The notes: generated from the letters alone by a model not told the origin. DNA of 64,000 bases from an uncultured Acidobacteriota bacterium (GCA_963838135.1 CAWIPV010000008.1:693464-757463), one strand, 5' to 3'. Shown: positions 31,727-55,886, numbered from the stretch's first letter. Translations and numbers: made by a program.

Positions 31727-31788
31727 CTGCAGTTTTGAGAACGCAACTTGATTCGTTCCCTGTTTTCTACGTATAAGGAATGTAAGTC

Positions 31789-38627: not shown

Positions 38628-39237
38628 CGATCACGCAGTGATTCACCATGGCCTCAGAAGGATACTTGCTGACGAGTTCCAAGGAGCTACATTCGGAGAG
38701 GCCCACCATTCGCAGGAGGCTCTTGATCTCGTGTGCCGCGAAATCTGGGACGTGGTAATCCTCGACATGGGCCTGCCGGGACGCGGCGGTCTCGATGTTC
38801 TGAAACAGATCCGGGCTGAACATCCGAAGTTGCCGGTCATTATTTTCAGCATGCATCCGGAGGAACAATTTGCAATTCGGGCGCTGAAGGCGGGAGCTTC
38901 AGGATACCTTGCCAAGGAGAGCGCTCCCGATCAAATGGTCACCGCGATCCGCAAGGTGCTCAGCGGAGGCAAGTACGTTAGCGGGGTCTTAGCAGAGAAG
39001 CTGGCAACAGACCTCGGCACTGACCTGTCGCTGCAACCCTACGAGATACTGTCGGATCGGGAATTTGAAATCCTGCGCATGATCGCTGCCGGAAAGACCA
39101 CCACCGCCATCGCGGATCAGTTATTCCTGAGTGTGAAGACGGTGAGCACCTATCGGAGTCGCATTCTTGAGAAGTTGCAATTGAAGACAGGTTCGGAGTT
39201 AATCCGCTACGCCATTGACCACGGACTCGACCGTTAG
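38608..39237 (+). CDS. NarL-type response regulator, cognate partner of the kinase
   Basis: ILIVDDH, VVILDMGLP, and LSDREFEILRMIAAGKTTTAIADQLFLSVKTV. It overlaps the kinase 3' end by 20 bp. Confidence 0.9.
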   Translation: MKILIVDDHAVIHHGLRRILADEFQGATFGEAHHSQEALDLVCREIWDVVILDMGLPGRGGLDVLKQIRAEHPKLPVIIFSMHPEEQFAIRALKAGASGYLAKESAPDQMVTAIRKVLSGGKYVSGVLAEKLATDLGTDLSLQPYEILSDREFEILRMIAAGKTTTAIADQLFLSVKTVSTYRSRILEKLQLKTGSELIRYAIDHGLDR

Positions 39238-39357: not shown

Positions 39358-39771
39358 GTGTATATGACGCATGCAATCCAAATACTGGTTGTAGATGACT
39401 CGCCAGTCATTATCGAGCGGCTGACTGTGATGCTAGGCGAGGTTCCAGGAGTCCATGTCGCAGGATGGGCTGTGGACGGCTCCAGCGCAGCTTGGGCGCT
39501 TCAACAGCAGGCGCCCGACGCTGTGGTGCTCGATCTCAAACTCGGCGAAGACAACGGACTGGACATTCTTACCCGGTTCCGTGCAGCAATGCCGATTACG
39601 AAATTCATCATGTTCACCAATTATGCTCAACCTCCGATGCGGCGTGCCTGCATGAAGGCAGGGGCAGATTACTTCTTTGATAAGTCAAGCGAATTCCGGC
39701 AACTGATCGATGTACTAACAGGCCTGGTCGCAGAGCAAGAATTGCAGGATGAACATTCCCATGAGGACTGA
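39358..39771 (+). CDS. Stand-alone receiver (CheY-like) domain protein, probably a decapitated NarL-type regulator
   Basis: ILVVDDSPV, VVLDLKLGEDNG and FFDKS. A LuxR-HTH relic follows it. Confidence 0.8.
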   Translation: MYMTHAIQILVVDDSPVIIERLTVMLGEVPGVHVAGWAVDGSSAAWALQQQAPDAVVLDLKLGEDNGLDILTRFRAAMPITKFIMFTNYAQPPMRRACMKAGADYFFDKSSEFRQLIDVLTGLVAEQELQDEHSHED

Positions 39772-39837
39772 GGACCTCCGAATCACCGCTTCCTTTGGAG
39801 GCATTCGCATGAGACAGCGCTGGAGCCACATGCGGCA

Positions 39838-39934
39838 CTGTCCGGTCCGGAATTCGAAATCGTGTGCTTGATCGCCAGCAGGAAAGACGACCACCGCTAT
39901 CGAGGGTCGATCGTCATTACGGTTTAGGCCATAA
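39838..39934 (+). pseudogene. Frameshifted relic of a LuxR-type HTH domain
   Basis: The DNA aligns by eye to 39051-39140 of the neighbouring regulator. It reads LSGPEFEIVCLIA, then shifts frame to AGKTTTAIEG (compare LSDREFEILRMIAAGKTTTAIADQ), and is then truncated. Confidence 0.6.
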
Positions 39935-39948
39935 CAGGGAGAAGGTTC

Positions 39949-40398
39949 GTGCTGAACAAGAGACACAAACTTCTAGTGGTCGATGACGAGCGAGCCATAG
40001 CTTCTCTTCGAGCCGCAATCCTTGAATCTCAAGGCTACGAGACGGCCACGGCCTTCAGCGGAGAAGAAGCGGTGCGGGTGGCCCATTCCTTTCAGCCCGA
40101 TTGCATTGTGAGTGACGTGATGATGGAAACGATGAACGGCGTGAATGCGGCGATAGAGATTTTGAATTTTCTGCCCCGGTGTAAGGTTTTGTTCATTTCT
40201 GGTAATGCTGGCTACGGAGGCTACCTAGGAAGGGCACGGGCAAATGGTTTCAATTTTGAAACTCTGGAAAAGCCAGTTACTCCGCTTGAAGTGTTGGCGA
40301 GAGTAGCAAAGGTTCTTTCAGCCTCATCCTATCCAGACCGAAAACCACCAGAATCAGGATACCAACTTGCAGCGGGAATCAGTTCAAAGGGTTTTTGA
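39949..40398 (+). CDS. Stand-alone receiver domain protein
   Basis: LLVVDDERA, CIVSDVMMETMNG and LEKP. Confidence 0.8.
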   Translation: MLNKRHKLLVVDDERAIASLRAAILESQGYETATAFSGEEAVRVAHSFQPDCIVSDVMMETMNGVNAAIEILNFLPRCKVLFISGNAGYGGYLGRARANGFNFETLEKPVTPLEVLARVAKVLSASSYPDRKPPESGYQLAAGISSKGF

Positions 40399-41039
40399 AG
40401 ATTATGCCGAATCACGCACATTACCGGACGTCATTGAACGCAATCTCGACGCCTGCCTTCGTGGTCGATGGCGACGTACAGATATTAGACCTGAACGATG
40501 CCGCGGCTCACTTCTGCGATCAAAAGCAGGAGGCGGCTTATAAGCGCCGTGGTGGCGAGGTTTTCCATTGCCTGCACTCTACTGATGTACCCGAGGGCTG
40601 CGGCAGGGGGTCCTTCTGCAAGAACTGTGTTATCCGCAACTCGGTGACAAAGTGTTTGGAAGGGCAGACAATCAGCCGCAAAGTAATGAAGCTCGAGCTC
40701 GCTTATAAACACGAAACAAAGGATATGCAAGTTCTTATAACGGCAAGCCCAATCCCGAATGGTGATAAAAAGCTGGCCATCGTAATGGTCGAAGACATCA
40801 CTGACCGCCAAAAGCCGGTGTACAACATCTCCCCCACAACCCCTTTCAAAAGTGGTCCGGTGCTGCGACAAGAGATCGACTGGCAACCCCGTCCACGGAC
40901 TCTCAAAGAGTTTCCGGAAGCGACTCAGGCCCGGCTCCGGCAATTGGACTTTAATCGAACCATCACAGTTTGCGTGGGCGACGAAGCCATGTATGTCCGG
41001 CGAATCAGACTCAATCAATTTCTGTGGTGCCACGCCTAA
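40395..41039 (+). CDS. PAS-like domain protein with a Cys/His cluster
   Basis: LNAISTPAFVVDGDVQILDLNDAA...FHCLHSTDVPEGCGRGSFCKNCVIRN...MVEDITD. It overlaps the upstream gene by 4 bp. Confidence 0.55.
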   Translation: MKIMPNHAHYRTSLNAISTPAFVVDGDVQILDLNDAAAHFCDQKQEAAYKRRGGEVFHCLHSTDVPEGCGRGSFCKNCVIRNSVTKCLEGQTISRKVMKLELAYKHETKDMQVLITASPIPNGDKKLAIVMVEDITDRQKPVYNISPTTPFKSGPVLRQEIDWQPRPRTLKEFPEATQARLRQLDFNRTITVCVGDEAMYVRRIRLNQFLWCHA

Positions 41040-41782: not shown

Positions 41783-42190
41783 ATGAAACTCGCGGTTTCG
41801 TTGTTTCTTAGTGTTTTCTTGTTGCTGCCTGCGGCGGCACAGCAGGTTCCCGCTTTCAGCGGCGATTTCCAGACCACAAACCCTACTTCGAGTGGTAACT
41901 CCGTTCAAGTCACATTTGCCTACCGGCTAGTGAATGGGACTGGAACTGCTATCACCGGTGCTACCGCGGCAATTGTCGACTCTACCAGCCCCGCGCGGTA
42001 CGGCGCTACGAGCAACATCGCCATCGCAGCCGGCGGCAACGTGGTGATCACGCAGGTTGTCACGGTGCCGCAGCGGATTGCTAATTCTTGGCAAGCGAAC
42101 AACGCCGCGACTGTGCAGGTTCAGTATGTTGACGCCAACGGCAATCCGGCAAATGCCATTGCAGTGCTGCAAGCGAGCAGCCAGTTATGA
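41783..42190 (+). CDS. Small secreted protein (beta-rich, Ig-like?) co-transcribed with giant gene A
   Basis: Signal peptide MKLAVSLFLSVFLLLPAAAQQ. Its stop overlaps the next start (ATGA). Confidence 0.55.
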   Translation: MKLAVSLFLSVFLLLPAAAQQVPAFSGDFQTTNPTSSGNSVQVTFAYRLVNGTGTAITGATAAIVDSTSPARYGATSNIAIAAGGNVVITQVVTVPQRIANSWQANNAATVQVQYVDANGNPANAIAVLQASSQL

Positions 42191-44973
42191 ACGGGGGAGA
42201 GCAGATGCATACTGGGAGAATCGCAACCCGAATAATTTTGCTGTGCACCGTTGTGCTGCTGCTAGCCACCGTCAGCGCCGCACAGAACTTTGTCTATTTT
42301 AGCGACGGAATCAGCACCGTCTATGGCTATCAGGTGAGCGCAACAGGAGTGTTGACGCCGGTACCGGGAGCCCCATTTGCCACGGGCGGCAACGGTGCTA
42401 TTGACTACTATGCCGCGAATCAGATCGCTGTTTCGAGCCAGGGATTCGTTTTTGTTTCGAACGCCGGGAGCAGAACCATTGCCTCTTTCGCTGTCAACTC
42501 AGGAACAGGAACGCTAACCGCCGTCCCTGGATCACCATTTACGTCGACCGGCACTGGTTACACCATGTCCATGGCTGTAACGCCGAACGGGAATTACCTC
42601 TTTGCTTCCAACGGGGCGTACATTGAGACCTTTGCGATCGGAAGCGATGGCGAACTGAGCGCGACGAGCACGTCTTTGGCCAGCGGCGATATAGACGGTA
42701 TTGCCATTTCGCCAAACGGTGCTTTTCTCGCGGTAACACCCGCCACGGGCGGTACCGTGTACGAGTACTCAGTCAATTCAGCCGGTGCCCTCTCGCCGGT
42801 CTCGGGCAGCCCTTTCACTGGGACGCTCATTGGTGGTTCTGGTGGCACAATCACTAATGCGGCTTGGAATTGTGCCAGCAACCTGCTGTACAACGGCGTG
42901 GCGCAAAACCCCGGGATGGAAGTGGTCGGTTGGAGCGTGGATGGTTCCGGAGTGCTGACTCCACTGCCAGGCTCGCCCTATCCGTACAGTGGGGCAAGCA
43001 ACTCCAACGTGGCCATTGTTTCCACGGATGGAGCCCACGTGTACGAAACCAGCCAGGACAGCGATCAGGTTCTGCGCTACGACGTCGCAGGCAACGGCTC
43101 CCTGACTGCTATCGGCATTTACCCTACCCTCGGGGCACCGACGACAATGGCCGTCAATTCGAGCAACAATCTTTTTGTGGCCACCGACAGTAATATCTTC
43201 GCTTCCTACATGATCAATGCGGACGGCAGCCTCACCCAGGTGCAGACACTTAGCCAGAGTTCCTCGGGCGGCGTTGCAGTTTATCCCGCAAACCCCTGCA
43301 CGGCGCCGACGCTGACTTCGATTAGCGTCAGTCCCACAACTGCCACCATCGCTTACGGCGGCAATGCGCCGTTCACTGCAACCGGCAACTATAGCAACGG
43401 CAGCACGCAGAACCTGACCAGTACGGTCACGTGGACGTCCTCCAATACCGCCGTAGCCACGGTTAGCGCATCGGGGGGAGCGTCGGCCGTAGGGGTGGGG
43501 AGCGCTAACATCAGCGCCACGCTCGGAACTGTGACCAGCAACAGCAGCACGCTGACAGTGAATCAGGCAGCGACTTCGGTCAGTTGGACGACTCCGGCCC
43601 CGATCATCTACGGCACAGCGCTCAGCGCAACGCAGTTGAACGCAACCAGCGGCGGCATCGCGGGAGCCTTCGTCTACTCGCCGGCGCTGGGCACGGTGCT
43701 CGCGGCCGGTTCGCAGACGCTTTCGGTCACCTTTACCCCGGCCAATCCCACGGACTACACCACGGTAACGACGAGCGTTTCGTTAACGGTGACTCAGGCG
43801 CTACTGACGGTGACGGCGAACAACCTGAGCCGCAACATCAATACGGCGAATCCGGCATTCACCTACACGGTGGCCGGATACGTCAATGGCAACGGCATCT
43901 CGGTGGTAACAGGCGCGGCGTCATGCAGTTCCACGGCTACGACGTCAAGCCCTGCCGGGAGCTATCCCATCACTTGCACCACTGGGACCCTTTCGGCTCA
44001 GAACTACACCTTTGGCCTCACGCCGGGAACGCTCTCCGTCCTTCCTGGTCTGGTTGAAAGTAATGTCAGCGTATCGCCGGCTTCGCCCATCACATCCGGC
44101 ACCGTCATCACGGTCAGCGACACCGCAACGAATAACAGCGTGAGCTCGACATTCGGTACGGTGCTCTACTACTTCTCCACGACCACGAGCGCCAGCGGAT
44201 CGGTCTACGCAAACCGCAGTACTGGTCTGCTAGGGGTAATGGCCAGCAGTTCGGGCACGACCAAGATCACCGTGCCGAGCCTGTCGGGCTCCTACTATCT
44301 GGTTGCATGTCTGGCAACCTGCAGTTCGACGCCGATCACCATTGTCCCGCCGCCGCCGGCAGTACTGGCGGAGAGCAACGTGAGCGTATCGCCGGCCTCG
44401 CCCATCACATCCGGCACCGTGATCACCGTCAGTGACACAGTAACTGACAGTGGGAGCGCGGGCTTCGGTACGGTGCTCTTCTACTTCTCCACGACCACTA
44501 GCCCCAGCGGAGGAGTCTATGGAAACCGGAGTACTGGTTTACTGGCAGTAGGTGCCAGCAGTTCGGGTACGACCAAGATCACCGTGCCAGGGCTGTCGGG
44601 CTCCTACTATCTGGTTGCATGTCTTACCACCTGCAGTTCGACGCCGATCACCATTGTCCCGCCGCCGCCGGCAGTCCTGGCGGAGAGCAACGTGAGCGTA
44701 TCGCCGGCCTCGCCCATCACACACGGCACCGTGATCACCGTCAGCGACACCGTAACTGACAGTGGGAGCGCAGGTGCCGGTACGGTGCTCTTCTACTTCT
44801 CCCCGACCACCAGCCCTAGCGGAGGAGTCTCTGGAAACCGGAGTACTGGTTTACTGGCAGTAGGGGCCAGCAGTTCGGGCACGACCAAGATCACCGTGCC
44901 GGGCCTGTCAGGCTCCTACTATTTGGTTGCGTGTGTTACCACCTGCAGCTCGACACCGATCACAATCAACTAA
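42187..44973 (+). CDS. Giant secreted repeat protein A: beta-propeller (lactonase-like) + Big_2 + MBG-like + 3x CARDB-like
   Basis: Signal peptide, repeated propeller blades (…SPNGxxLxV…), Big_2-like ISVSPTTATIAYGGNAPFTATGNYSNGSTQNLTSTVTWTSSN, MBG-like YGTALSATQLNAT units, and three 104-aa C-terminal repeats. Confidence 0.85.
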   Translation: MNGGEQMHTGRIATRIILLCTVVLLLATVSAAQNFVYFSDGISTVYGYQVSATGVLTPVPGAPFATGGNGAIDYYAANQIAVSSQGFVFVSNAGSRTIASFAVNSGTGTLTAVPGSPFTSTGTGYTMSMAVTPNGNYLFASNGAYIETFAIGSDGELSATSTSLASGDIDGIAISPNGAFLAVTPATGGTVYEYSVNSAGALSPVSGSPFTGTLIGGSGGTITNAAWNCASNLLYNGVAQNPGMEVVGWSVDGSGVLTPLPGSPYPYSGASNSNVAIVSTDGAHVYETSQDSDQVLRYDVAGNGSLTAIGIYPTLGAPTTMAVNSSNNLFVATDSNIFASYMINADGSLTQVQTLSQSSSGGVAVYPANPCTAPTLTSISVSPTTATIAYGGNAPFTATGNYSNGSTQNLTSTVTWTSSNTAVATVSASGGASAVGVGSANISATLGTVTSNSSTLTVNQAATSVSWTTPAPIIYGTALSATQLNATSGGIAGAFVYSPALGTVLAAGSQTLSVTFTPANPTDYTTVTTSVSLTVTQALLTVTANNLSRNINTANPAFTYTVAGYVNGNGISVVTGAASCSSTATTSSPAGSYPITCTTGTLSAQNYTFGLTPGTLSVLPGLVESNVSVSPASPITSGTVITVSDTATNNSVSSTFGTVLYYFSTTTSASGSVYANRSTGLLGVMASSSGTTKITVPSLSGSYYLVACLATCSSTPITIVPPPPAVLAESNVSVSPASPITSGTVITVSDTVTDSGSAGFGTVLFYFSTTTSPSGGVYGNRSTGLLAVGASSSGTTKITVPGLSGSYYLVACLTTCSSTPITIVPPPPAVLAESNVSVSPASPITHGTVITVSDTVTDSGSAGAGTVLFYFSPTTSPSGGVSGNRSTGLLAVGASSSGTTKITVPGLSGSYYLVACVTTCSSTPITIN
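44056..44970 (+). repeat. Three tandem 312-315-bp coding repeats (CARDB-like units)
   Basis: Units start at 44056, 44371 and 44683 (ESNVSVSPASPIT...YYLVAC.TTCSSTPITI). Units 2 and 3 are nearly identical at the DNA level. Confidence 0.9.
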
Positions 44974-44986
44974 TCGCACGGTCCAA

Positions 44987-45013
44987 GCGGCTGCCCTTTA
45001 AAAGGGCAGCCGC
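44987..45013 (+). terminator. Palindromic terminator hairpin of gene A
   Basis: gcggctgcccttt/aaagggcagccgc followed by TATTTC. The same element in inverted orientation lies at 50030-50056. Confidence 0.7.
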
Positions 45014-45184
45014 TATTTCATAGAAGGTAGACTGCATTTTGCGGTTCGTACTTGGGGCACTCTTCAAGCTTGGGCCTCAAGGTGACTTATATTTTCAGTA
45101 GTTCACGGTTGAAGAGTCTACAGCGGATTGAATTTCCATTTCCCTGGAATAAAACCAATCATCCTGAGTTATCCTCATTGTGCC

Positions 45185-45724
45185 GTGGCTGACTCCCAGA
45201 GCGATTTCGGATCTTTCGAAGAGCTGGCAATGCCGCTGTTTCCCCGCCTGTACAACTTTGCGCACTGGCTTACACAGGACCGCAGTGAAGCGGAGGATCT
45301 GGTGCAGGAAACTTGCGTGAAGGCTCTGAAGGGATTTGGTTCCTTTCGTCAGGGAACGAATTTCCGTGCTTGGATGTATAGGATTCTGAAGAATACGTTT
45401 CTCACTTCGCGTGCTGGCCTGAGCGCCGTGACGGCCTCTCTGGATGATGACGAGGACCCGGTGGCCGAACCCATTGCACACGGGACGCCGGAATCGATTC
45501 TGATCTCCAACGCGGATCGGCAGACGATTCAAGCAGCTCTGGAGGGGCTCCCGGTGCAGTACCGCGAAGTAATTCTGTTGTGCGACGTGGAAGAGATGAG
45601 TTATCAGGAGATTGCCGAGACACTGGCAATTCCGATTGGGACCGTAATGTCACGCCTTTCGCGCGGACGAAAAGCGATGCGCGAATTGCTGAACGAGGCC
45701 AGCATACGGAGGGCGGTGAAGTGA
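45185..45724 (+). CDS. ECF-type RNA polymerase sigma factor
   Basis: Region 2 (LYNFAHWLTQDRSEAEDLVQETCVKAL...FRAWMYRILKNTF) and region 4 (YREVILLCDVEEMSYQEIAETLAIPIGTVMSRLSRGR). GTG 45185 is preferred; the ORF-track TTG at 45128 is the alternative. Confidence 0.85.
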   Translation: MADSQSDFGSFEELAMPLFPRLYNFAHWLTQDRSEAEDLVQETCVKALKGFGSFRQGTNFRAWMYRILKNTFLTSRAGLSAVTASLDDDEDPVAEPIAHGTPESILISNADRQTIQAALEGLPVQYREVILLCDVEEMSYQEIAETLAIPIGTVMSRLSRGRKAMRELLNEASIRRAVK

Positions 45725-46479
45725 CTTGCGACGAATTGCACGGCAAACTGGCGCCCTACGTTGATTCCGAACTTCCTGCCGGTGAGCTGGCGGAGTTTGA
45801 GTCTCATTTGCACGGCTGTGCCACCTGCGCCGCTTACGCGCTGGGACTGCTGCAAACGAAGCGCGCGATTCGGGCGGCGGCCACGCGCTATGTGCCGTCT
45901 CCGGAGTTTCGCCTCCGCATGGAGCAAAGCATTCGCGCCAAGAACAAGCGGCAGTGGTTCGACATGCGCTTCCCCAGGCTTGCGCTGGTTGCCTTTGCCG
46001 CGGTGTTGTTGATCGCGTCGGTCACCGTGTGGGTGAATCACTCCGGGCGCGAACGTGAGCTCACTGAGATTGCAGACCTGCATGTGACCGCTCTGGCCAG
46101 TTCCAACCCGGTGGACGTGGTGTCGTCGGACAAGCATACCGTGAAGCCTTGGTTTGCCGGAAAACTACCCTTTTCATTCAATCTTCCGGAGTTGCAGAAT
46201 TCCGAGTTCACCCTGGCTGGTGGGCGCCTGGCTTATTTCGAGCGTAGCTCGGGCGCGCAATTGATCTTCAACCTGCGCAAACATCAGCTCTCTGTTTTTA
46301 TCTTTAAGGAGGAGCCGCGAGAATTTCCTTTTCACGAGGGAACGGTCACTTCCACCCGACTTACCCTCCACATGGAGAACTGGAGTGAGGGTGGCCTGCG
46401 CTACTTCGTCGTCAGTGACGCCCCCGCGTCCGACGTGCACGCGTTGAGCGAACTGCTGAGAAAAGCAGCCCGCTCGTGA
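45721..46479 (+). CDS. Anti-sigma factor (zf-HC2, single TM helix, extracytoplasmic domain)
   Basis: The GTG start overlaps the sigma stop (GTGA). CDELHGKLAPYVDSEL...HLHGCATC motif. TM helix LALVAFAAVLLIASVTVWV. Confidence 0.8.
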   Translation: MTCDELHGKLAPYVDSELPAGELAEFESHLHGCATCAAYALGLLQTKRAIRAAATRYVPSPEFRLRMEQSIRAKNKRQWFDMRFPRLALVAFAAVLLIASVTVWVNHSGRERELTEIADLHVTALASSNPVDVVSSDKHTVKPWFAGKLPFSFNLPELQNSEFTLAGGRLAYFERSSGAQLIFNLRKHQLSVFIFKEEPREFPFHEGTVTSTRLTLHMENWSEGGLRYFVVSDAPASDVHALSELLRKAARS

Positions 46480-46573
46480 ATTCGCCGCCTCTCTGAACAA
46501 ACTCAAGCAGAGAGTATGGGTAGGTACGTTCCCTATTTGCCGGTCCCTTCTTGAGAGGTATGCGGAGGCAACG

Positions 46574-47296
46574 GTGCCAACGAGAACGGAAGACCACATT
46601 CATATTGGAGCTATCGTTTTTCCAGGAATGGACCAAATTGACTTTACTGGACCCTTCGAAGTTCTTTCACGAATTCCCGACTCCACTTTCCATGTACTGT
46701 GGAAAGAGGCGATTCCGATTCGAGACGTTAAAGGACTGATCATCACGCCCGAGAGGACTTTTAGAGAGTCCCCACAACTCAATTTACTTGTCGTTCCGGG
46801 CGGTTTCGGACAGGAAGCCCTAATGGACGACGATGTCGCGCTGAAATTCATCCGGGATCAGGCCGCGGGAACCAAGTACGTCTTCTCTGTCTGCACCGGA
46901 GCCTTGGTTTGTGGGGCAGCAGGCTTACTGAAGGGTGTACGCGCCACCACACATTGGTCGGCCTTTCACCTACTTGAGTACTTTGGAGCCATTCCTGTCA
47001 ATTCGCGAGTGGTGGTTGATGGAAAACATGTCAGTGCCGCGGGTGTCACCGCCGGCATTGATGGAGCTTTAAGAGTGGCGTCACTTATGCGCAACGAGCG
47101 GATCGCTCAGCAAATTCAACTTTCAATCGAATATGCCCCGAACCCACCCTTCAACAGTGGCACTCCGCAAACCGCTCCACAGGAAGTCCTCGAGGCCGCA
47201 CAAGCCTCGGTTCGGCAGATCACAGAAGCGCGGCTGGTCACTGCGCGGCGCATCGCTTCCCGCCTGGGTATCAAGCCGTTGTCTGAAACGGTATAA
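46574..47296 (+). CDS. DJ-1/PfpI-family protein (isocyanide-hydratase-like)
   Basis: IGAIVFPGMDQIDFTGPFEVL, nucleophile elbow SVCTGALVCGAAGLL, and THW. Confidence 0.8.
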   Translation: MPTRTEDHIHIGAIVFPGMDQIDFTGPFEVLSRIPDSTFHVLWKEAIPIRDVKGLIITPERTFRESPQLNLLVVPGGFGQEALMDDDVALKFIRDQAAGTKYVFSVCTGALVCGAAGLLKGVRATTHWSAFHLLEYFGAIPVNSRVVVDGKHVSAAGVTAGIDGALRVASLMRNERIAQQIQLSIEYAPNPPFNSGTPQTAPQEVLEAAQASVRQITEARLVTARRIASRLGIKPLSETV

Positions 47297-47373
47297 ACAA
47301 ACTCTCTATCGTCTATTGTGAAGGTGCTGAGCGAGCTGCTGGGTGAAAGCAGCCCGCTTGTGAGCTGTTGAAG

Positions 47374-47823
47374 CTATCGGCTCGTGTTGTTCGAGGCATC
47401 TCTCTGCGGGGAGGAGAGCAACTTCAGGTAGCTGATGATGGCGGCGCGTTCATCGGCTTTCGGAATATGAAAATCCATGTTGTTGTCCTCGACCAGTGAG
47501 TCCGTATCTGTAAGCCATTTTTCCAATCGTTGTTCATCCCAAACAAAGTGCGCCGACTTGAGAGCCGATGAATAGTTGAAACCAGGCGCGGTACCCGCCT
47601 GCCTTCCATACACGTCTGACAGCCTCGGGCCTTCTTTGTTGCGATCGAGCGAGTGGCAGCCGGTGCAGCGCTTCTCGAACAGTTGCTTGCCCTCGTCGGC
47701 GTTTTCTGCCGCGCGGCTGATCTTGGGAAAGATAACCAGCGCGAGCAGCAACAAGGCAAGTGGAGTTCCAGCGAGGCGGGCAACCGGGTAGTCCACCTTC
47801 TTCATTGAGCGTAAGTACTTCAT
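47374..47823 (-). CDS. Membrane-anchored class I c-type cytochrome
   Basis: N-terminal TM helix, CTGCHS haem motif, and a distal Met region (NNMDF). Confidence 0.8.
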   Translation of the reverse strand: MKYLRSMKKVDYPVARLAGTPLALLLLALVIFPKISRAAENADEGKQLFEKRCTGCHSLDRNKEGPRLSDVYGRQAGTAPGFNYSSALKSAHFVWDEQRLEKWLTDTDSLVEDNNMDFHIPKADERAAIISYLKLLSSPQRDASNNTSR

Positions 47824-48335
47824 TTCGCCTCCGTTCTCTGAGTGGATACATCAGAAGAGAGTTTGTTATTTTCAGCCTCGGCCACCAGGCGTTTTCGCTC
47901 GACTTTTGTCCAGTCGACGATGAGCTTTCGCTCGGACTCAGATAGTCGCGCTTCGGGATGCAGCAGGAGGTATTGTTTCAAGGGCATCTTGCCTTGGCGA
48001 AGCTGAGTGCTCATCTTCCCCAGGAGATCGATGCGGCTGTCGATGCTGTACTTCTCCCAGGAAGAAAGGTTCATGTGTTCGCGTCCTTCATGCACGTCAT
48101 GCTCAACCAGCCACGAGGTGGGCGCAATCTTGCTGTAGAGAGGCCACCGCGTGTTGTTTGAATGGCAGTCGCCGCACTTCCGCGCGAGTAGCGTTTGAAC
48201 CTCGCCTGGAACATTCGTTTTTCCTATCACGGCGCTACCTTCGGTGTGCAGGTTTCCCCACGGGTGAATGAGTGACAAAGCGGTGACAGCCAATGCCGCG
48301 ACGGTTGCGCCAGTGGATAGTGTGCGTGCTCTCAT
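47820..48335 (-). CDS. Haem-binding-domain (Haem_bd-like) protein
   Basis: CGDCHSNNTRWPLYSKIAPTSWLVEHDVHEGREHMNLS. 4-bp overlaps on both sides. Confidence 0.7.
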   Translation of the reverse strand: MRARTLSTGATVAALAVTALSLIHPWGNLHTEGSAVIGKTNVPGEVQTLLARKCGDCHSNNTRWPLYSKIAPTSWLVEHDVHEGREHMNLSSWEKYSIDSRIDLLGKMSTQLRQGKMPLKQYLLLHPEARLSESERKLIVDWTKVERKRLVAEAENNKLSSDVSTQRTEAK

Positions 48336-49351
48336 CGCGCAGCCTCTGCCGTCGTGGCGGTCACATCCGCCAGAGTCGAGTCCACCACCGCGAGCTGATG
48401 CCTTTGGGGAACAAAGTTGACATCGGTGAGTCCAAGTACACTCTGCAGTTTGTCGGCGGGCACCTTCAGCGGACCAGGCGACGCTGCCGTACCCGGCGGC
48501 GGTTGCGGAAACGCAGTGGACATCGCTGTGTGAAATGTGACGTTACCCTCTACCTTTTGCATCACCTGGTGAATGTGTCCGTTCAGCACCGTGAGAGAGC
48601 CAAAGCGTTTCAGCAGAGAAAGTGCCTGCTCGCTATCCGACGTGGCCCAACCCCAATCCGGATAGAGCGCCCACAGCGGAATATGCGCAAAGAGCACAAT
48701 CGGCGTACTGCTTCCCAGTCGTGCAACGTCCTGCTTGAGCCAGGCAAGTTGATCGTTGCCCAGTTTACCCATTCCTTCGAGTTGAACTACGTTGACCAGG
48801 CCTACGAAGTGAACCCCCTTGTGGTCGAAGCTGTACCAGCCGTTCCCAACCGTGCCTTTACCATAGCGTTCGAGGTAGATCTTCCCGTCATCTTCGGAGG
48901 TGTCGTGCTCTCCGGGAACGTAAAAGACTTTGCTTTTGGCACCAACCAGTACCTGGTCCATGGTGTCGAACTCCGAGGCCTTCGAAGTGTGCGTAAGGTC
49001 GCCAGTATGGATCAGGAAATCCGGCATACGGGATGCCGCTCGAATCTTGTCCACCGCTTTTTGCAGTGTGCCCGTGACGTCCGGATTCGCCCCCTTGGTA
49101 AAGCCGATGTGGCTATCGCTGATCTGAATGAAGCTGAATTCTTCGTCGTGCGTTTGTGGATTTACGGCGCCAAAGGCTCTGGAAACTGGAATCCCTCCAG
49201 CAAGGCTCCAGACTATGCCGGTGCCCGCCCACGCCATGCAATGCAAAAATCCGCGACGGTCAATTCCGTCATAACTTTCCGGCATAGTCCTGGCACTCGC
49301 TTCTAGAGACTTCGTTGCCGCATCGGATTCCGAAGTTGTTTTCTTCATCAC
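48332..49351 (-). CDS. Tat-exported metallophosphoesterase
   Basis: Twin-arginine signal (IDRRGFLHCMAWAG) and MPE motifs ISDSHIG, GDLTH, GEHD and NGHIH. Confidence 0.8.
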   Translation of the reverse strand: MMKKTTSESDAATKSLEASARTMPESYDGIDRRGFLHCMAWAGTGIVWSLAGGIPVSRAFGAVNPQTHDEEFSFIQISDSHIGFTKGANPDVTGTLQKAVDKIRAASRMPDFLIHTGDLTHTSKASEFDTMDQVLVGAKSKVFYVPGEHDTSEDDGKIYLERYGKGTVGNGWYSFDHKGVHFVGLVNVVQLEGMGKLGNDQLAWLKQDVARLGSSTPIVLFAHIPLWALYPDWGWATSDSEQALSLLKRFGSLTVLNGHIHQVMQKVEGNVTFHTAMSTAFPQPPPGTAASPGPLKVPADKLQSVLGLTDVNFVPQRHQLAVVDSTLADVTATTAEAAR

Positions 49352-50029
49352 CTCTCCTTGTAGGCTTTCAAACGTACAGCTACATCAACTGAGCCCATCA
49401 CTTTTTATTCCCTGGGACGCAGAAGTTGTGCCGCCAGGTGAGAGCGACACAATTTGCTCTTCTAGAGCGGGAGATTTGCTGCTGTTTGGGTCGTATACAT
49501 TGATGAGGCCATTCCGAAATTGCAGACCAGAATGTCATTTGCGAAGGCACTAAATGTCGCAGCCGCCGAAGCGTTGCGACAGTTCACAAAGAGATACGTC
49601 CATGAACCGAATTCAATTCCCAAGATGCGGACAATGGAATTGGTTACGTCGGGGTCGGCGTGGCCTATTACGGCGGCAATGCAGTCGGCTATGAGTTTGC
49701 CCCATCGTAGATGGCCGCGAAATCGGACTCAGCGGCGGTCAGCACGAATATCAACGCCGGGCGCCAACAGCCGTCATTCCGGACGGCGGCCGGGCCACCA
49801 TAGCACTGAACCCCGAGCGTTCGGATGGCGCTTGCACCCTTCGGCTTCCAAGGGGCGCAAAAAGAATGGTGCGTCAACGATTGATGTTACCGGTCCGAGG
49901 GGAGGACGGTCGCAGGCTATGAAATGCCTGCGTGAACCCTCCCGGTCCTGACAGAGTACGAGCGCTCATGTTTGAAGGCCCTAACCATCAGTGGCTTAAA
50001 ACATCTCGCTCGGAAAATAGAAACTCCAA

Positions 50030-50056
50030 GCGGCTGCCCTTTTAAAGGGCAGCCGC
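50030..50056 (-). terminator. Palindromic terminator hairpin of gene B (copy of 44987-45013)
   Basis: The same 27-nt palindrome, followed on the minus strand by TTGGAGTTTCTATTTT. Confidence 0.7.
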
Positions 50057-51240
50057 TTGGACCGTGCGATTAGTTGATTGTGATCGGTGTCGAGCTGCAG
50101 GTGGTAACACACGCAACCAAATAGTAGGAGCCTGACAGGCCCGGCACGGTGATCTTGGTCGTGCCCGAACTGCTGGCCCCTACTGCCAGTAAACCAGTAC
50201 TCCGGTTTCCAGAGACTCCTCCGCTGGGGCTGGTGGTCGGGGAGAAGTAGAAGAGCACCGTACCGGCACCTGCGCTCCCACTGTCAGTTACGGTGTCGCT
50301 GACGGTGATCACGGTGCCGTGTGTGATGGGCGAGGCCGGCGATACGCTCACGTTGCTCTCCGCCAGGACTGCCGGCGGCGGCGGGACAATGGTGATCGGC
50401 GTCGAACTGCAGGTTGTAAGACATGCAACCAGATAGTAGGAGCCCGACAGCCCTGGCACGGTGATCTTGGTCGTACCCGAACTGCTGGCACCTACTGCCA
50501 GTAAACCAGTACTCCGGTTTCCATAGACTCCTCCGCTGGGGCTAGTGGTCGTGGAGAAGTAGAAGAGCACCGTACCGAAGCCCGCGCTCCCACTGTCAGT
50601 TACTGTGTCACTGACGGTGATCACGGTGCCGGATGTGATGGGCGAGGCCGGCGATACGCTCACGTTGCTCTCCGCCAGTACTGCCGGCGGCGGCGGGACA
50701 ATGGTGATCGGCGTCGAACTGCAGGTTGCTAGACATGCAACCAGATAGTAGGAGCCCGACAGGCTCGGCACGGTGATCTTGGTCGTGCCCGAACTGCTGG
50801 CCATTACCCCTAGCAGACCAGTACTGCGGTTTGCGTAGACCGATCCGCTGGCGCTCGTGGTCGTGGAGAAGTAGTAGAGCACCGTACCGAATGTCGAGCT
50901 CACGCTGTTATTCGTTGCGGTGTCGCTGACCGTGATGACGGTGCCGGATGTGATGGGCGAAGCCGGCGATACGCTGACATTACTTTCAACCAGACCAGGA
51001 AGGACAGAGAGCGTTCCCGGCGTGAGGCCAAAGGTGTAGTTCTGCGCCGAAAGGGTCCCAGTGGTGCAAGTGATGGGATAGCTCCCGGCAGGGCTTGACG
51101 TCGTAGCCGTGGAACTGCATGACGCCGAGCCTGTTACGACCGAGGTGCCGTCGCCATTGACGTATCCGGCCACCGTGTAGGTGAATGCCGGATTCGCCGT
51201 GTTGATATTACGGCTCAGGTTGTTCGCCGTCACCGTCAGA
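50030..51240 (-). repeat. Right arm of the 1.2-kb inverted repeat (3' end of gene B plus its terminator)
   Basis: See the left arm. The encoded 364 C-terminal residues are identical to gene A. Confidence 0.95.
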
Positions 51241-54200
51241 GACGCTGGGGTGACGGTCAGCGTGCCTGGCGTGAACGTAATAGCGTAATTGCCGGAGATC
51301 ACTCCGCCAGGAGTGACGGAATAGTTGCCCGGAGTACTGGAGGCAGTCGCCGGCGTGCTGAAGAGGAGCGTGCCGCCGAGCACCGACGCTGTATCGCCGC
51401 TCACGAATCCGGTGTAGATCGGCGTGAACGCCGGATTGGCCGCTCCGTACGTCTTCGTTGCCGCCTGCACCGCAATGTTCAGTGCGGCTGCGGTGATGGT
51501 CAATGTACCAGGGGAATTGGTTACCGTATAGTTGCCGATCGCATTGCCCGGATCGACTAGGGTTGCCGTGATCGGGTAAGTGCCGGTTGGGCTCGTCGCG
51601 CTCGCCGCGGTTCCATAGCTAGCGGTGATGTTATCTCCGTTTGCCAGTCCTGTCAGCGTACCTCCGAAGACCGGGTTGGCGGCGCCATAGATGCGTCTGG
51701 CGTTTGCAACCGTTACCGTCAGTGAGATTGGATTTACCGTTAGAGAACCGTTCACGTAGCTGATGTTGTAATTGCTTGTGGCGAACGTGCCGCCTACTGG
51801 CGCGCTGGGCATAATCGCATAAGCGCCCGCCGCCGCCGTTGCTGCCGCTCCCGTGCTGGTCAGCGTAACGCTGCCGACCGTATCACCGTTGATCAGGCCG
51901 TTGACGGCGAATGCCGTGGTACCCAACGTTGCTGTCTGCCCGTAGTTCTTGCTCTGGTTGCCGGCAGTGATGGTCAACGAAGCCGGGTTGATGGTGGCCG
52001 TAGTGGTCGCCGAAGTCGAGACCAGCTGGTAATTGCCCGCCCCGCCGCTCAGCGTGATACCTGTCGCGGTCACCGTTTGCGAAATGGCGGCTGGGGAGGC
52101 AAATGCTGCGCTGGCCGCCGAGCACGTTACCTTGTCACCCGCGATCACCACCGTCAACGAACAGCCCGTGATGGTCGCGGAGCTGGTTCCGTCGTACGGT
52201 TTGTTGGCCGCCGTCACGCTGGCAGTCACTGGAGCCGAGTTGATGGTGGCTGTAGTAGTCGCCGAGGTCGAGACCAGCTGGTAATTTGCCGATGACCCGC
52301 CGCTCAGCGTGATGCCTACCGCGGTCACCGTCTGGGGCGTCGAACTGGCGCTGGAAGAAGCAAATGCGGCACTGGCCGCCGAGCAAGTCACCTTGCTGCT
52401 GTCAGCTGCGATCACCCCCGTCAGCGAACAACTGGTGGTTGCAGTGCTGGTTCCGTCGTACGGCTTGCTGATTGCCGTCACACTGGCGGTCACTGAGGCC
52501 GCGTTGATGGTGGCCGTAGTGGTCGCCGAAGTCGAGACCAGCTGGTAATTGCCCGCGCCGCCGCTCAGCGTGATACCTGCCGCCGTCACCGTCTGCGGCG
52601 TCGAACTGGCGTTGGAAGAGGCAAATGTTGCACTGGCTGCCGAGCAAGTCACCTTGCCGTTGTCAGCAGAGAGCAAGCCCGTCAGCGAACAGCCTGTGAT
52701 GTTCGCAGTGCTGGTTCCGTCGTACGGCTTGCTGATTGCCGTCACGCTGGCAGTCACTGAGGCCGGGTTGATGGTGGCCGTAGTGGTCGCCGAAGTCGAG
52801 ACCAGCTGGTAATTGCCCGCTGCCCCGCCGTTCAGCGTGATGCCCGTTGCGGTCACCGTCTGCGGCGTCGAGTTGGCGTTGGAAGAGGCGAATGCGGCAC
52901 TGGCCGCCGCGCACGTCACTGCACCGCTGTCCCCCGCAAGCACTCCCGTCGGCGAACAACCCGTAATGGTCGCGTTGCTGGTTCCGTCATACGGCTTACT
53001 GGCTGCCGTCACGCTGGCAGTCACTTGAAACGGATTAATGGTGGCCGTAGTGGTCGCCGAAGTCGAGGCCAGTTGGTAATTGCCCATCGCCGTACCGCTC
53101 AGCGTGATGCCTGCGGCTGTCACCGTCTGGGGCGTCGAACTGGCGCTGGATGAGGCAAATGCTGCGCTGGCCGCCGAGCACGTCACCTTACCGATATCAC
53201 CTGCGAGCACTCCTGTCAGCGAACAGCCCGAGATGGTCGCGTTGCTGGTTCCGTCGTACTGTTTGTTGGCCGCCGTCACGCTGGCAGTCACCGAGGTCGG
53301 GTTGACCGTCATCGTTCCGTTCACGAAAGCGTAGGTGTAGTTGGTCAGTGTCGCAGGCAGGGTCCCCAAACTGATGCTGATGGTGTACTGCGCTGCCGGA
53401 CTTGAGGAGGTTGCTGTCGTCGAGAGCGCGGGTACCTTGGTTCCCCACAGCGTGCTAATTTGGTCGTTATTCTGTAAGCCCGAGACGGTATATGCGCCCA
53501 AAAGACTGGGAACCGTGCCGCCGTACGTCATTGACAGATTGTTGGCGGTTACGGTCAGCACCGCCTGGCTCACCACCTGCACCAGTGTGGAGGAAGTCGC
53601 CGCGAGGTAGTTTGAGTCGGTTGCAAATGTTGCCGTGATGTCGTGGCTACCCGTCGCCAGGGTGGTGGTTGTGCAAGTTGCCATGCCGCCAGTGTTAGTC
53701 ATGGCGCCGCCGCACAGTATTGTCGCCCCGGACTTGAAGGTCACTGCGCCGCCAGGCGCGGCTAGGCCGGGGGCGTTCGGCAGCGCCGTGGCCGTAAAGG
53801 TCACGCTTCCGTAAGTGCTCGGGTTCGCCGAGGCGGTGACAATGGGGGTTGCGGCCACAGCTACCTTCGCCACCGTAACGCTCACGCCGCTCGAGTTGCT
53901 GCCATTGTAGTTTGCGTCGCCGGCGTAGACTGCGGTAAAGCCGCCGCCAGATCCGGGCAATGCGGGAGTTGTAACGGCAGTACCGGTGGAGTCCAAAGAG
54001 ACGTTGGACGCGTAGAGAACACCAGCGAGCATAATATTAACCGAGCCGGTGGGGATTCCGGTTGCGGGCGATTTGGGCGCTACGGTCACGGTAAACTGCA
54101 CCAGTGTGCCGTAAGGGCTGCTGCCAGTCGGACTTGCGGTGATTTTCGTTGTGGTGTTGCCCAGATTCACAGTCTCGGTCTGCGGCACTGGAGAGAGAAG

Positions 54201-55886
54201 GCCCGCGGTATTGGATAGGGAGGAGATCACCGGCGACCCGGCCACGGTATCCGTGTAGTAGACGTCTACCGAAGAAGCTTTTGCCGCGACCGTCGCGCTT
54301 GTGACCGCACCCCCGGTGCAGCCTGACACCGCGTAGAAAGTCCCGGTGCCTGAGGTGGTAGCGAGATTCACGGTAACTGCAGAGCTAACCGCAGAGGACA
54401 CGCCCAGACTATCTTGGCTTTGGATGATGATGGCGCTAGAGCACTCTCCTGGCACCACTACCCGCGCCGCATTGGTGAACGCAAGCTGGTAAGGCGTGCC
54501 CGCGTCTGTGAATTGAATCTGCGCCTGCGATTTGCTCCCGACGGCGGTTACGGTGTAAGAGGTACCGACGTCGAGCGGGGATGGAGCATAGTTGGCGCTT
54601 ACGATATTGCCGTTGGCATCGGCGGTGACCTGCGAGGTGAGGCTGCCGTCGATCGGCGGCGTCTGCACCTGCGTCAGGGTTACGGTCTCTGCCGGTTGCC
54701 ATCCGGAGCCGGTAAGGGTCACAAGCTGACCAGGGTGGTAACCAGGAAGATCGGATTGCAACGTCGCGTAGCCGTATTGCTCGACTGCTGCGAAGCTAGA
54801 GCCGCCCGCAAGGGTCAGGATACCGGAGCCAGCAGCCACGCTTCCACCCTGGTGCGACGAAGCAGGGGCGGAATCAATCACGGTGTTGTTCCACGGCAGG
54901 AAGAGTTCGGCGCTGCTAATAGGATTCCCAGCGTTCGTACCATCTGCGACCAGTACGGCATTGTTAGCCGGAAGCAGCGACGCAACTTGCCCAGTGCGCG
55001 CAGTGGTCAACGCAACCGGCGCCACGGTATCCAAGCCCAGGATTGCGTCGATCAACTCCACCGAGGCAAGTTCGGCAACACCGTTTTGCGCGCCCTCGGG
55101 ATAGCTGCCGCCGACGATGGCGACGCGACCGTCAACCAGCGTGCTGGCAGAAGCTCCGCTGCGAGGCGTCGTGAGCGATGGTCCGCTGGTGGAAAAACCT
55201 GTCGCTGGAGCGAAGATCTCGGTAGTTGCCAGCGTCGCGCCGGAGGCATCGCTGCCACCTGCCACCAGCAAACGTCCATCGGTAAGGACGGCAATCGCCG
55301 GGTTAGAGCGGGGAGTGTTGAGGACTCCCAGGTATGTGAATTGCTTCGAAGACGGATCGTAGAGTTCCACCGCGGCCACGGCCGAGCTGCCGTTGCTACC
55401 GCCAATGATGGCAACCGTGCTGTCAGGCAGCACAAATGCTGCGTGCCCTGAACGGGCATCGTTCAAGGTACTGGTCAACAGAGTCCACGCATTTGCCGTC
55501 GGATCGAACACCTCGGCGGTATTGGTGGCTCCGGTCGCTGTGTCACCGCCGGTCACCAACACCAAGTTTCCAGCAAGTAGCGTGGCGGTGTGTCCCGAGC
55601 GTCCCACGTTCAACGCTGGCCCCGGTGTTACAGTTCCGTCCGAGTTCACAAAGTCTGTGCTGTTCAGAGTTAGTCCGCCAGCATCAAGTCCGCCGACGAC
55701 CAGTACCCGTCCATCGGAAAGCAGCACGGATGCTGCTGCGTTACGCGGAACACTCAACGGAGTCACCGCCGTCCATGTGCCGACGGAGGCCGGAGTAACG
55801 GAGGCTGCGGCAGACTGTGCGTTCAACCCGAGAGACAGCACGGCGTACAGAAGCGCGAACAAGATGGCAGCTCCACAGCGACGCAT
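50070..55886 (-). CDS. Giant secreted repeat protein B: Kelch-type beta-propeller + Ig-like + YDG/MBG-like arrays + 3x CARDB-like
   Basis: 1938 aa with a signal peptide. Six Kelch-like blades (…DGRVLVVGG…, …GNLVLVTGG…). Big_3-like units (…FTAVYAGDANYNGS…), five YDG-type repeats and several MBG-type units. GGAGG lies 6 nt upstream of the ATG. Confidence 0.9.
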   Translation of the reverse strand: MRRCGAAILFALLYAVLSLGLNAQSAAASVTPASVGTWTAVTPLSVPRNAAASVLLSDGRVLVVGGLDAGGLTLNSTDFVNSDGTVTPGPALNVGRSGHTATLLAGNLVLVTGGDTATGATNTAEVFDPTANAWTLLTSTLNDARSGHAAFVLPDSTVAIIGGSNGSSAVAAVELYDPSSKQFTYLGVLNTPRSNPAIAVLTDGRLLVAGGSDASGATLATTEIFAPATGFSTSGPSLTTPRSGASASTLVDGRVAIVGGSYPEGAQNGVAELASVELIDAILGLDTVAPVALTTARTGQVASLLPANNAVLVADGTNAGNPISSAELFLPWNNTVIDSAPASSHQGGSVAAGSGILTLAGGSSFAAVEQYGYATLQSDLPGYHPGQLVTLTGSGWQPAETVTLTQVQTPPIDGSLTSQVTADANGNIVSANYAPSPLDVGTSYTVTAVGSKSQAQIQFTDAGTPYQLAFTNAARVVVPGECSSAIIIQSQDSLGVSSAVSSAVTVNLATTSGTGTFYAVSGCTGGAVTSATVAAKASSVDVYYTDTVAGSPVISSLSNTAGLLSPVPQTETVNLGNTTTKITASPTGSSPYGTLVQFTVTVAPKSPATGIPTGSVNIMLAGVLYASNVSLDSTGTAVTTPALPGSGGGFTAVYAGDANYNGSNSSGVSVTVAKVAVAATPIVTASANPSTYGSVTFTATALPNAPGLAAPGGAVTFKSGATILCGGAMTNTGGMATCTTTTLATGSHDITATFATDSNYLAATSSTLVQVVSQAVLTVTANNLSMTYGGTVPSLLGAYTVSGLQNNDQISTLWGTKVPALSTTATSSSPAAQYTISISLGTLPATLTNYTYAFVNGTMTVNPTSVTASVTAANKQYDGTSNATISGCSLTGVLAGDIGKVTCSAASAAFASSSASSTPQTVTAAGITLSGTAMGNYQLASTSATTTATINPFQVTASVTAASKPYDGTSNATITGCSPTGVLAGDSGAVTCAAASAAFASSNANSTPQTVTATGITLNGGAAGNYQLVSTSATTTATINPASVTASVTAISKPYDGTSTANITGCSLTGLLSADNGKVTCSAASATFASSNASSTPQTVTAAGITLSGGAGNYQLVSTSATTTATINAASVTASVTAISKPYDGTSTATTSCSLTGVIAADSSKVTCSAASAAFASSSASSTPQTVTAVGITLSGGSSANYQLVSTSATTTATINSAPVTASVTAANKPYDGTSSATITGCSLTVVIAGDKVTCSAASAAFASPAAISQTVTATGITLSGGAGNYQLVSTSATTTATINPASLTITAGNQSKNYGQTATLGTTAFAVNGLINGDTVGSVTLTSTGAAATAAAGAYAIMPSAPVGGTFATSNYNISYVNGSLTVNPISLTVTVANARRIYGAANPVFGGTLTGLANGDNITASYGTAASATSPTGTYPITATLVDPGNAIGNYTVTNSPGTLTITAAALNIAVQAATKTYGAANPAFTPIYTGFVSGDTASVLGGTLLFSTPATASSTPGNYSVTPGGVISGNYAITFTPGTLTVTPASLTVTANNLSRNINTANPAFTYTVAGYVNGDGTSVVTGSASCSSTATTSSPAGSYPITCTTGTLSAQNYTFGLTPGTLSVLPGLVESNVSVSPASPITSGTVITVSDTATNNSVSSTFGTVLYYFSTTTSASGSVYANRSTGLLGVMASSSGTTKITVPSLSGSYYLVACLATCSSTPITIVPPPPAVLAESNVSVSPASPITSGTVITVSDTVTDSGSAGFGTVLFYFSTTTSPSGGVYGNRSTGLLAVGASSSGTTKITVPGLSGSYYLVACLTTCSSTPITIVPPPPAVLAESNVSVSPASPITHGTVITVSDTVTDSGSAGAGTVLFYFSPTTSPSGGVSGNRSTGLLAVGASSSGTTKITVPGLSGSYYLVACVTTCSSTPITIN
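51979..53300 (-). repeat. Five tandem 252-270-bp coding repeats (YDG-type domains) inside gene B
   Basis: VTASVTA..K.YDGTS.A.I.GCSLTG......KVTCSAASAAFASS.ASSTPQTVTA.GITLSGG..NYQLVSTSATTTATIN repeated five times. Periodic shadow ORFs at 52033, 52309, 52549, 52813 and 53080 show the same period. Confidence 0.9.

Follow-up and report, generated by a model that had tools for sequence, protein, structure and literature searches.

The subject of this analysis is a pair of convergent surface-protein genes, here called A and B, that lie tail to tail in an uncultured bacterium of the Acidobacteriota and end in almost the same DNA. They are found in a 64,000-nt stretch of one contig (GCA_963838135.1, CAWIPV010000008.1:693464-757463), which we call the window and number from its first base; the source is metagenome-assembled and Terriglobia-like, and the close relatives of the neighbouring genes all come from metagenome-assembled genomes (MAGs) of Acidobacteriota. 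The two genes begin with unrelated heads and finish in a common tail, which forms the arms of an inverted repeat. It is likely, in our reading, that the tail of B was recently copied onto A and that the two copies were afterwards re-homogenised by gene conversion.

Two unrelated heads and an inverted repeat

Gene A (42187-44973, + strand) is an open reading frame (ORF) of 928 aa whose product carries, in order, a signal peptide, a lactonase-type seven-bladed propeller (Pfam Lactonase, 3.7e-13), a Big_2 domain (2.9e-11), a weak Ig-like match, an MBG_2 domain (5.4e-16, residues 540-617) and three CARDB-type units; taken from M7, this product is P0003 of the public collection. Gene B (50070-55886, - strand), an ORF of 1938 aa, encodes a signal peptide followed by a Kelch propeller, two Big_3_5, five YDG and five MBG_2 domains, and again three CARDB-type units. 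Both signal peptides are of the Sec type and were read from the sequence, the Kelch, Big_3_5, YDG and MBG_2 domains of B being Pfam matches. Ahead of the common tail, the 539 residues of A and the 1548 residues of B have no similarity to one another (best BLASTP E = 11). A preliminary description of this DNA had proposed a lactonase-like propeller with Big_2 in one gene and a Kelch propeller with Ig and YDG arrays in the other, complete divergence upstream of the tail, and convergent genes whose arms are inverted as a consequence; each of these points is upheld by the Pfam, BLASTP and strand assignments.

A repeat search reveals a single large inverted repeat in the window, with arms of 1234 nt at 43781-45014 (arm A, + strand) and 50029-51262 (arm B, - strand) that are 98% complementary and spaced 5014 nt apart. 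An inverted repeat of this length cannot have arisen by chance. The arms were compared ungapped and base by base, arm B position j pairing with arm A position 95043 - j, and arm A divides into three parts on this basis. The first, 43781-43803, is a weakly matching linker in which 13 of 23 bases agree, and upstream of it there is no similarity. The second is a diverged edge of 119 nt (43804-43922) with seven mismatches, three of them non-synonymous (N/D, I/T and A/S). The third, 43923-45014, is a near-identical core of 1092 nt at 99.5% identity; its five mismatches (43998, 44037, 44313, 44628 and 44817, all within 43923-45013) are third-position synonymous changes without exception. The boundaries are sharp, and the flanks upstream and downstream are without detectable similarity. 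The high-identity block starts at nt 43804, which is residue 540 of gene A and profile position 1 of MBG_2 as judged by Pfam and the junction alignment, and it runs 41 nt beyond the stop codons (44971-44973 in A, 50070-50072 in B) to end at 45014 and 50029. The counts of the preliminary description (five core mismatches, all synonymous, and seven in the preceding 119 bp, three of them non-synonymous) were reproduced exactly by this comparison, and the identity of about 40 bp that it reported past the stop codon is the 41 nt found here.

The two arms end in terminator hairpins of unequal length. The hairpin after gene B (50025-50061, - strand) is complete, with a 17-bp stem of -35.4 kcal/mol whose strands are TCCAAGCGGCTGCCCTTT and AAAGGGCAGCCGCTTGGA, followed by the T-rich tail GTTTCTATTTT. 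The copy after gene A (44986-45014, + strand) is truncated, with a 13-bp stem of -26.4 kcal/mol and then ATTTCATAG, a poor T tail. The stem of B is longer by 4 bp on each side (TCCA...TGGA), TCCA being unpaired in A, and the identity therefore stops 4 nt inside the 3' stem of the B hairpin; the earlier statement that identity ends exactly at the hairpin edge thus holds for arm A and fails for arm B. The hairpin core had 0 expected matches in 100 shuffles. A dispersed REP-like element was considered as a source of these hairpins and rejected, since within the window the hairpin is present at the two arm ends only.

Immediately ahead of gene A, a small ORF (41783-42190, about 135 aa, from MKLAVSLF...) has a signal-peptide-like start and no Pfam or NCBIfam match. 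Its end overlaps the start of gene A in an ATGA, which suggests that the two are co-transcribed.

Composition of the shared tail

The tail begins with an MBG_2 domain (43804-44046, + strand; B copy at 50997-51239) that passes the Pfam gathering threshold for PF18676, with 59.4 bits against a cut-off of 25 and alignment to profile positions 1-72 of 72. It is followed by three tandem CARDB-type units of 105, 104 and 99 aa, delimited with tblastn (44047-44970, + strand; B copy at 50073-50996), each of which terminates in YYLVAC-x3-C-SSTPITI. The cysteine motif is accordingly C-x3-C (ACLTTC), and the C-x2-C given in the preliminary description was in error. At the DNA level units 2 and 3 are about 91% identical and units 1 and 2 about 85%.

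The five YDG domains of gene B (51917-53305) likewise form a tandem array, with a period of 252-267 nt and 67-93% DNA identity among the copies. The identities within this array and among the CARDB-type units suggest that intragenic homogenisation or recent duplication of units is active as well.

The units do not reach the CARDB family (PF07705) in Pfam: searches with either whole protein, with the 389-aa tail and with individual units gave no match, even when the limit was relaxed to E <= 10. Their relationship emerges from direct comparison of sequences. P0001, a protein with four CARDB domains (Pfam, 4.2e-55), matches the tail at E = 1.7e-15 in phmmer, and an exhaustive HMMER scan of 1.84 billion representatives with the tail returned 250 matches at E <= 1e-3, 25 of them at E <= 1e-30. 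The best 45 of these 250 were inspected (P0001 and P0002 by Pfam) and are giant proteins with tandem CARDB-type units; a word-indexed search of 5.8 billion proteins returned two distant CARDB matches only. In alignment A1 the tail units and canonical CARDB units have 14 invariant columns in common, and the tail resembles the CARDB arrays of giant bacterial and archaeal surface proteins in its domain order, in its C-terminal placement, in the conserved positions VxDT..N.G, FY.S, R, P and YY..A, and in the cysteine pair of the 'AC...NNC' subgroup.

The alignment also reveals where the tail units differ. All three have a 12-residue gap between the conserved cysteines, so that AC-ANYNGGIAESNT-VNNC in the related protein P0297 corresponds to AC-LTTC here; the acidic loop A-D-x4-V-x-E-x2-E-x-N-N that follows the YY..A strand in CARDB arrays is replaced by L-T-T. 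Among the relatives, 592 of 653 unit instances bearing the cysteine pair have C-x13-C or C-x15-C, of which C-x3-C is a remnant, and the C-x3-C variant is unique among the 150 best representatives. Only P0005 is otherwise shortened, to C-x6-C; this protein of 2307 aa has 19 CARDB-type units with that loop and reads ...GACIDGTAVCKTGPSVTVT. Because P0005 has a shortened loop of its own, the shortening of the cysteine loop has, on this comparison, arisen more than once, and independently in P0005.

The preliminary description had proposed that the structure of the tail be predicted and the tail searched with HMMs. AlphaFold2 given unit 2 and alignment A1 (10 rows) returned a seven-strand beta-sandwich, the architecture of CARDB domains, with a predicted local distance difference test (pLDDT) score of 92.3; the 389-aa tail modelled without an alignment reached pLDDT 33. 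The matches of the unit 2 model in a Foldseek search of the PDB are E-set-type sandwiches, namely Fn3-like domains of GH3 enzymes and NPC2, with template-modelling (TM) scores of 0.68-0.76 and a probability of 1.00; no solved CARDB entry is among the top 50 matches listed, and the result supports the fold class only. These checks thus delivered a confident beta-sandwich and CARDB homologues, and no Pfam or NCBIfam family for the units. By homology, the tail units are CARDB domains with a 12-residue loop deletion, although they fall below the Pfam threshold. The earlier wording, one MBG-like and three CARDB-like units, is consequently right in substance, as Pfam (MBG_2), phmmer and alignment A1 agree, with the reservation that no single unit attains a Pfam CARDB score.

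Origin of the tail and history of the arms

The best guide to the source of the tail is P0297, a protein of 1345 aa from another acidobacterial MAG, which has 56% identity to the N-terminal 780 aa of B at 97% coverage and 67% identity in the Kelch part. Its order is signal peptide, Kelch propeller, Ig/Big_3_5, three MBG and three CARDB domains, with the last CARDB unit forming the end of the protein, and the 389-aa shared segment is colinear with its last 404 aligned residues (E = 1e-33). No second gene with an MBG plus triple-CARDB tail was found near the P0297 gene in its genome. Because P0297 ends in this way, MBG plus three CARDB domains is the native ending of the B family. Gene A offers a different picture. 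Upstream of the shared domain Pfam detects no further MBG_2 in A, as against four more in B, and P0184 (32% identity, 94% coverage), the one relative of the A type recovered at full length, combines a lactonase propeller with Ig repeats and contains no MBG or CARDB domain. Since A has no other MBG domain, P0184 has neither MBG nor CARDB, and the hairpin is complete only after B, we infer that B was the likely donor of the tail and A its recipient.

The differences between the arms are unevenly distributed, with seven in the 119 nt of the edge and five in the 1092 nt of the core (Fisher p = 3.9e-5). The edge has a synonymous divergence (pS) of 0.126 and a non-synonymous divergence (pN) of 0.035; for the core the values are 0.017 and 0. 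Under random placement, five synonymous differences out of five would have a probability of 0.0015; the all-synonymous core implies that the differences are biological, not sequencing noise, and that purifying selection acts on both copies. Exchange between the tandem units was considered as a source of the core differences: 44817 looks derived in arm A, and the other four positions are uninformative. As a single copying event would give uniform synonymous divergence, the step indicates at least two transfers, presumably an older one that covered at least 43804-45014 and a later, non-reciprocal one over about 43923-45014. The preliminary description had read the arms as products of ongoing gene conversion and not as an old duplication; the present analysis agrees with it on the latter point, and the step between edge and core, which fits repeated non-reciprocal transfer, supports it on the former.

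The contrast between edge and core could alternatively reflect a single recent segmental inverted duplication without later conversion, in which the edge is a patch from a third MBG paralogue or has been under relaxed or positive selection. Three of the seven edge differences are indeed non-synonymous; at the N/D site the residue of arm B is shared with the other MBG_2 units of B, the N of A looking derived (by eye, from the translation); and the four other MBG_2 units of B are possible donors of a patch. Synonymous divergence, however, is also about sevenfold higher in the edge, a contrast for which selection acting on the protein gives no account; a patch taken from another copy would itself be gene conversion; and no third copy of the edge sequence is present in the window. 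We consider this alternative unlikely.

The history that we prefer, copying followed by conversion, could have run as follows. A copy of the last 1.2 kb of the Kelch-type gene B, running from its final MBG_2 domain through the three CARDB domains with their deleted loops and past the stop codon to take in most of the terminator hairpin, would have been joined, inverted, to the 3' end of the convergent gene A. The 5' junction would have formed at a domain boundary inside a short, partially matching LTVT-type linker and the 3' junction inside the hairpin, the product being an in-frame chimera that sets the propeller and Ig head of A on the tail of B. The inverted copies, 5 kb apart, would then have recombined non-reciprocally at least once more, probably by RecA-type gene conversion, wiping the differences from the distal 1.09 kb and leaving the older divergence in the 119-nt 5' edge, with purifying selection persisting on both copies. 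As at the ends of many giant bacterial surface proteins, the CARDB tail itself most likely serves as a structural stalk or an adhesive Ig-like array.

Two well-studied systems provide parallels. In Salmonella enterica, tufA and tufB are 1185-nt genes in inverse orientation with 12 differences; gene conversion homogenises them, in processive tracts that abort where homology ends (PMC5485169). The arms described here resemble them as two near-identical, inversely oriented sequences of about 1.2 kb on one chromosome with about a dozen differences; the tuf sequences, however, are whole essential genes 762 kb apart, whereas the arms are a gene tail plus terminator 5 kb apart, between which conversion is deduced from the sequence pattern alone. 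In Helicobacter pylori, the 3' segments of babA/babB and homA/homB evolve in concert while their 5' parts diverge (PMC3960876), and in these pairs as in sabA/sabB the 3' segments of surface or adhesin genes are kept similar by RecA-dependent conversion, with chimeric genes as a result (PMC3960876). The H. pylori pairs differ in being paralogues with diverged 5' and middle parts, whereas the heads of A and B belong to unrelated families (lactonase propeller vs Kelch), and in sharing a beta-barrel membrane anchor where A and B share a soluble Ig-like array; unlike them, A and B are adjacent, convergent, 5 kb apart and known from one genome.

Several points weigh against copying followed by conversion. 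Searches of 185,579 species representatives, 5.8 billion protein clusters and 1.84 billion representatives yielded no orthologue of A or B that has this tail, and in none of 160 related loci is the inner gene cluster, described below, adjoined by the tail or by a gene resembling A or B. P0184 is a truncated gene product, so that its lack of a CARDB tail is weak evidence on the A family, and the case for a direction from B to A consists of architecture and 4 bp of hairpin. The contig is metagenome-assembled, consensus polishing could have exaggerated the identity of the arms, and the arm junctions are known from the assembly alone.

The last of these points bears on an assembly or polishing artefact, in which the 3' end of A was misjoined through the B tail or cross-mapped reads made moderately similar tails near-identical. 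The locus is present in one assembly only, on a 1.3-Mb MAG contig, and exact searches of the contig index for the sigma factor and for both adhesin-like genes gave no independent contig. Independent confirmation is limited to the inner DJ-1 region, where a short-read Logan contig of about 1 kb (L164) equals 46440-47450 with 0 mismatches; DJ-1 is the only window protein, of those tried, that is also present in this independent short-read assembly. Short-read run ERR10755938 is of the same population as the contig. An artefact of this kind is nevertheless very improbable in our view, as both junctions are in frame, the 5' junction coincides with a domain boundary and similarity there tapers gradually instead of breaking off, the 12 differences between 43804 and 45014 mean that the arms were resolved as two copies, the five core differences are all at synonymous third positions, unlike read error or a chimeric consensus, and each arm is bordered by unique sequence at either end. 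We also considered a fold-back artefact of assembly and reject it, since the mirrored part is just 1.2 kb and all four flanks are unique.

It could also be that the arrangement is functional and selected, the identical tail acting as a lineage-specific anchoring or export module or the arms as a recombination switch that inverts the ECF sigma/CpdA segment between them relative to read-through from A and B. Both proteins have signal peptides and, as the preliminary description had noted, no recognised sorting signal: no curated family (PEP-CTERM, LPXTG, T9SS C-terminal domain and similar) was matched by A, B or the tail in NCBIfam at E <= 1 or Pfam at E <= 0.1, and the C-termini of both (...CVTTCSSTPITIN) have no hydrophobic or basic tail. 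Each adhesin gene is moreover co-directional with the adjoining inner operon (A with sigma/anti-sigma; B with CpdA/Haem_bd/cytochrome c), the hairpin copy of A is without a T tail, and the core pN is 0. Against this, C-terminal CARDB arrays are common, as in 70 of 142 related CARDB-array proteins no more than 35 residues follow the last unit, which means that they end on a CARDB domain; P0297 does likewise, in a single-copy context in its genome. Pfam searches of the ORFs at 30-64 kb turned up regulators, a sigma/anti-sigma pair, redox proteins and outer-membrane proteins but neither a recombinase nor an invertase (the ORFs at 39.2-42.2 kb were read by eye, three of them also in Pfam), nor were mobile-element remnants or recombinases found beside the arms, and a crossover between the arms would flip the inner segment while leaving both proteins unchanged. 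We consider a selected arrangement very improbable. The anchoring or export module kept identical on both proteins, as put forward in the preliminary description, is not borne out, given that the units are ordinary CARDB domains and P0297 has the same tail; the recency of the transfer is enough to account for the shared identity of A and B, and identity at this pS requires no selection. We regard as very doubtful, likewise, the wider idea that the loop-deleted triple-CARDB tail is a lineage-specific cassette for envelope attachment or secretion competence of Sec-exported giant proteins in Terriglobia, moved between adhesin heads and kept uniform for a common docking partner, in a geometry that also lets the ECF-sigma/CpdA segment flip.

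Read as copying followed by conversion, the locus would be a clear natural case, from an uncultured soil phylum, of domains being shuffled through ectopic recombination: a whole C-terminal domain array and its terminator joined to an adhesin head unrelated to it, with the seam at a domain boundary and a nested divergence that records later conversion. It would illustrate how the large and variable MBG/YDG/CARDB surface-protein repertoire of Acidobacteriota can be quickly rebuilt. The process is a known one and the example ordinary, opening no new mechanism. For annotators it carries a caution: when two gene tails in a MAG are nearly identical and lie 5 kb from each other, both can be genuine.

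The inner segment, related loci and surroundings

The unique segment between the arms (45128-49351) carries genes on both strands, all assigned by Pfam. On the + strand are an ECF sigma factor (45128-45724), a zf-HC2 anti-sigma factor (about 45724-46479) and a DJ-1/PfpI protein (46574-47296); on the - strand are a cytochrome c (47374-47823), a Haem_bd protein (47820-48335) and a CpdA-like metallophosphoesterase (48332-49351). The stretch of about 680 nt that separates arm B from the start of the CpdA-like gene (49352-50028) contains no convincing ORF and is empty in Rfam; Rfam and tRNA scans of the window as a whole likewise found nothing.

Related loci (160, L001-L160) were fetched by way of the CpdA-like gene from species-representative genomes and JGI metagenomes. 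They reveal that the five-gene cluster of CpdA, Haem_bd, cytochrome c, sigma and anti-sigma is widespread in Acidobacteriota, and that the placement or direction of the sigma/anti-sigma pair with respect to the CpdA operon takes three forms. The CpdA-like metallophosphoesterase of this conserved cluster has a twin-arginine-like leader. A DJ-1 match is present in 0 of the 160 loci; DJ-1 lies inside the cluster in this genome only. A scan of species-representative contigs with the tail protein gave 187 pattern matches, none of them a relative.

Among the closest relatives, at about 80% protein identity, the flanks of the cluster in L002 are housekeeping enzymes. In L082 (13421-18292), whose CpdA is about 81% identical, an unrelated He_PIG Ig-domain protein of 1623 aa takes the position of gene A, directly upstream of and co-directional with the sigma/anti-sigma pair. 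The slot adjoining the sigma factor may thus repeatedly host large surface-protein genes, and A and B are, as far as these loci indicate, lineage-specific occupants of a variable neighbourhood.

The wider surroundings are chromosomal in character, with GluRS/GlnRS, two-component systems and CarboxypepD_reg/outer-membrane protein (OMP) barrel proteins. Upstream of gene A, a LuxR-type regulator and a histidine kinase with PAS and HisKA_3 domains (35913-39237) are followed by two ORFs (39358-39771 and 39949-40398) whose translations resemble stand-alone response-regulator receivers by eye. This dense signalling block, which includes a protein with sub-threshold PAS matches, reaches 41039 (39358-41039), just upstream of gene A. 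Further upstream, at 30281-33522, are two adjacent class-I tRNA synthetases of the Glu/Gln type, one GluRS-like (481 aa) and one GlnRS-like (577 aa).

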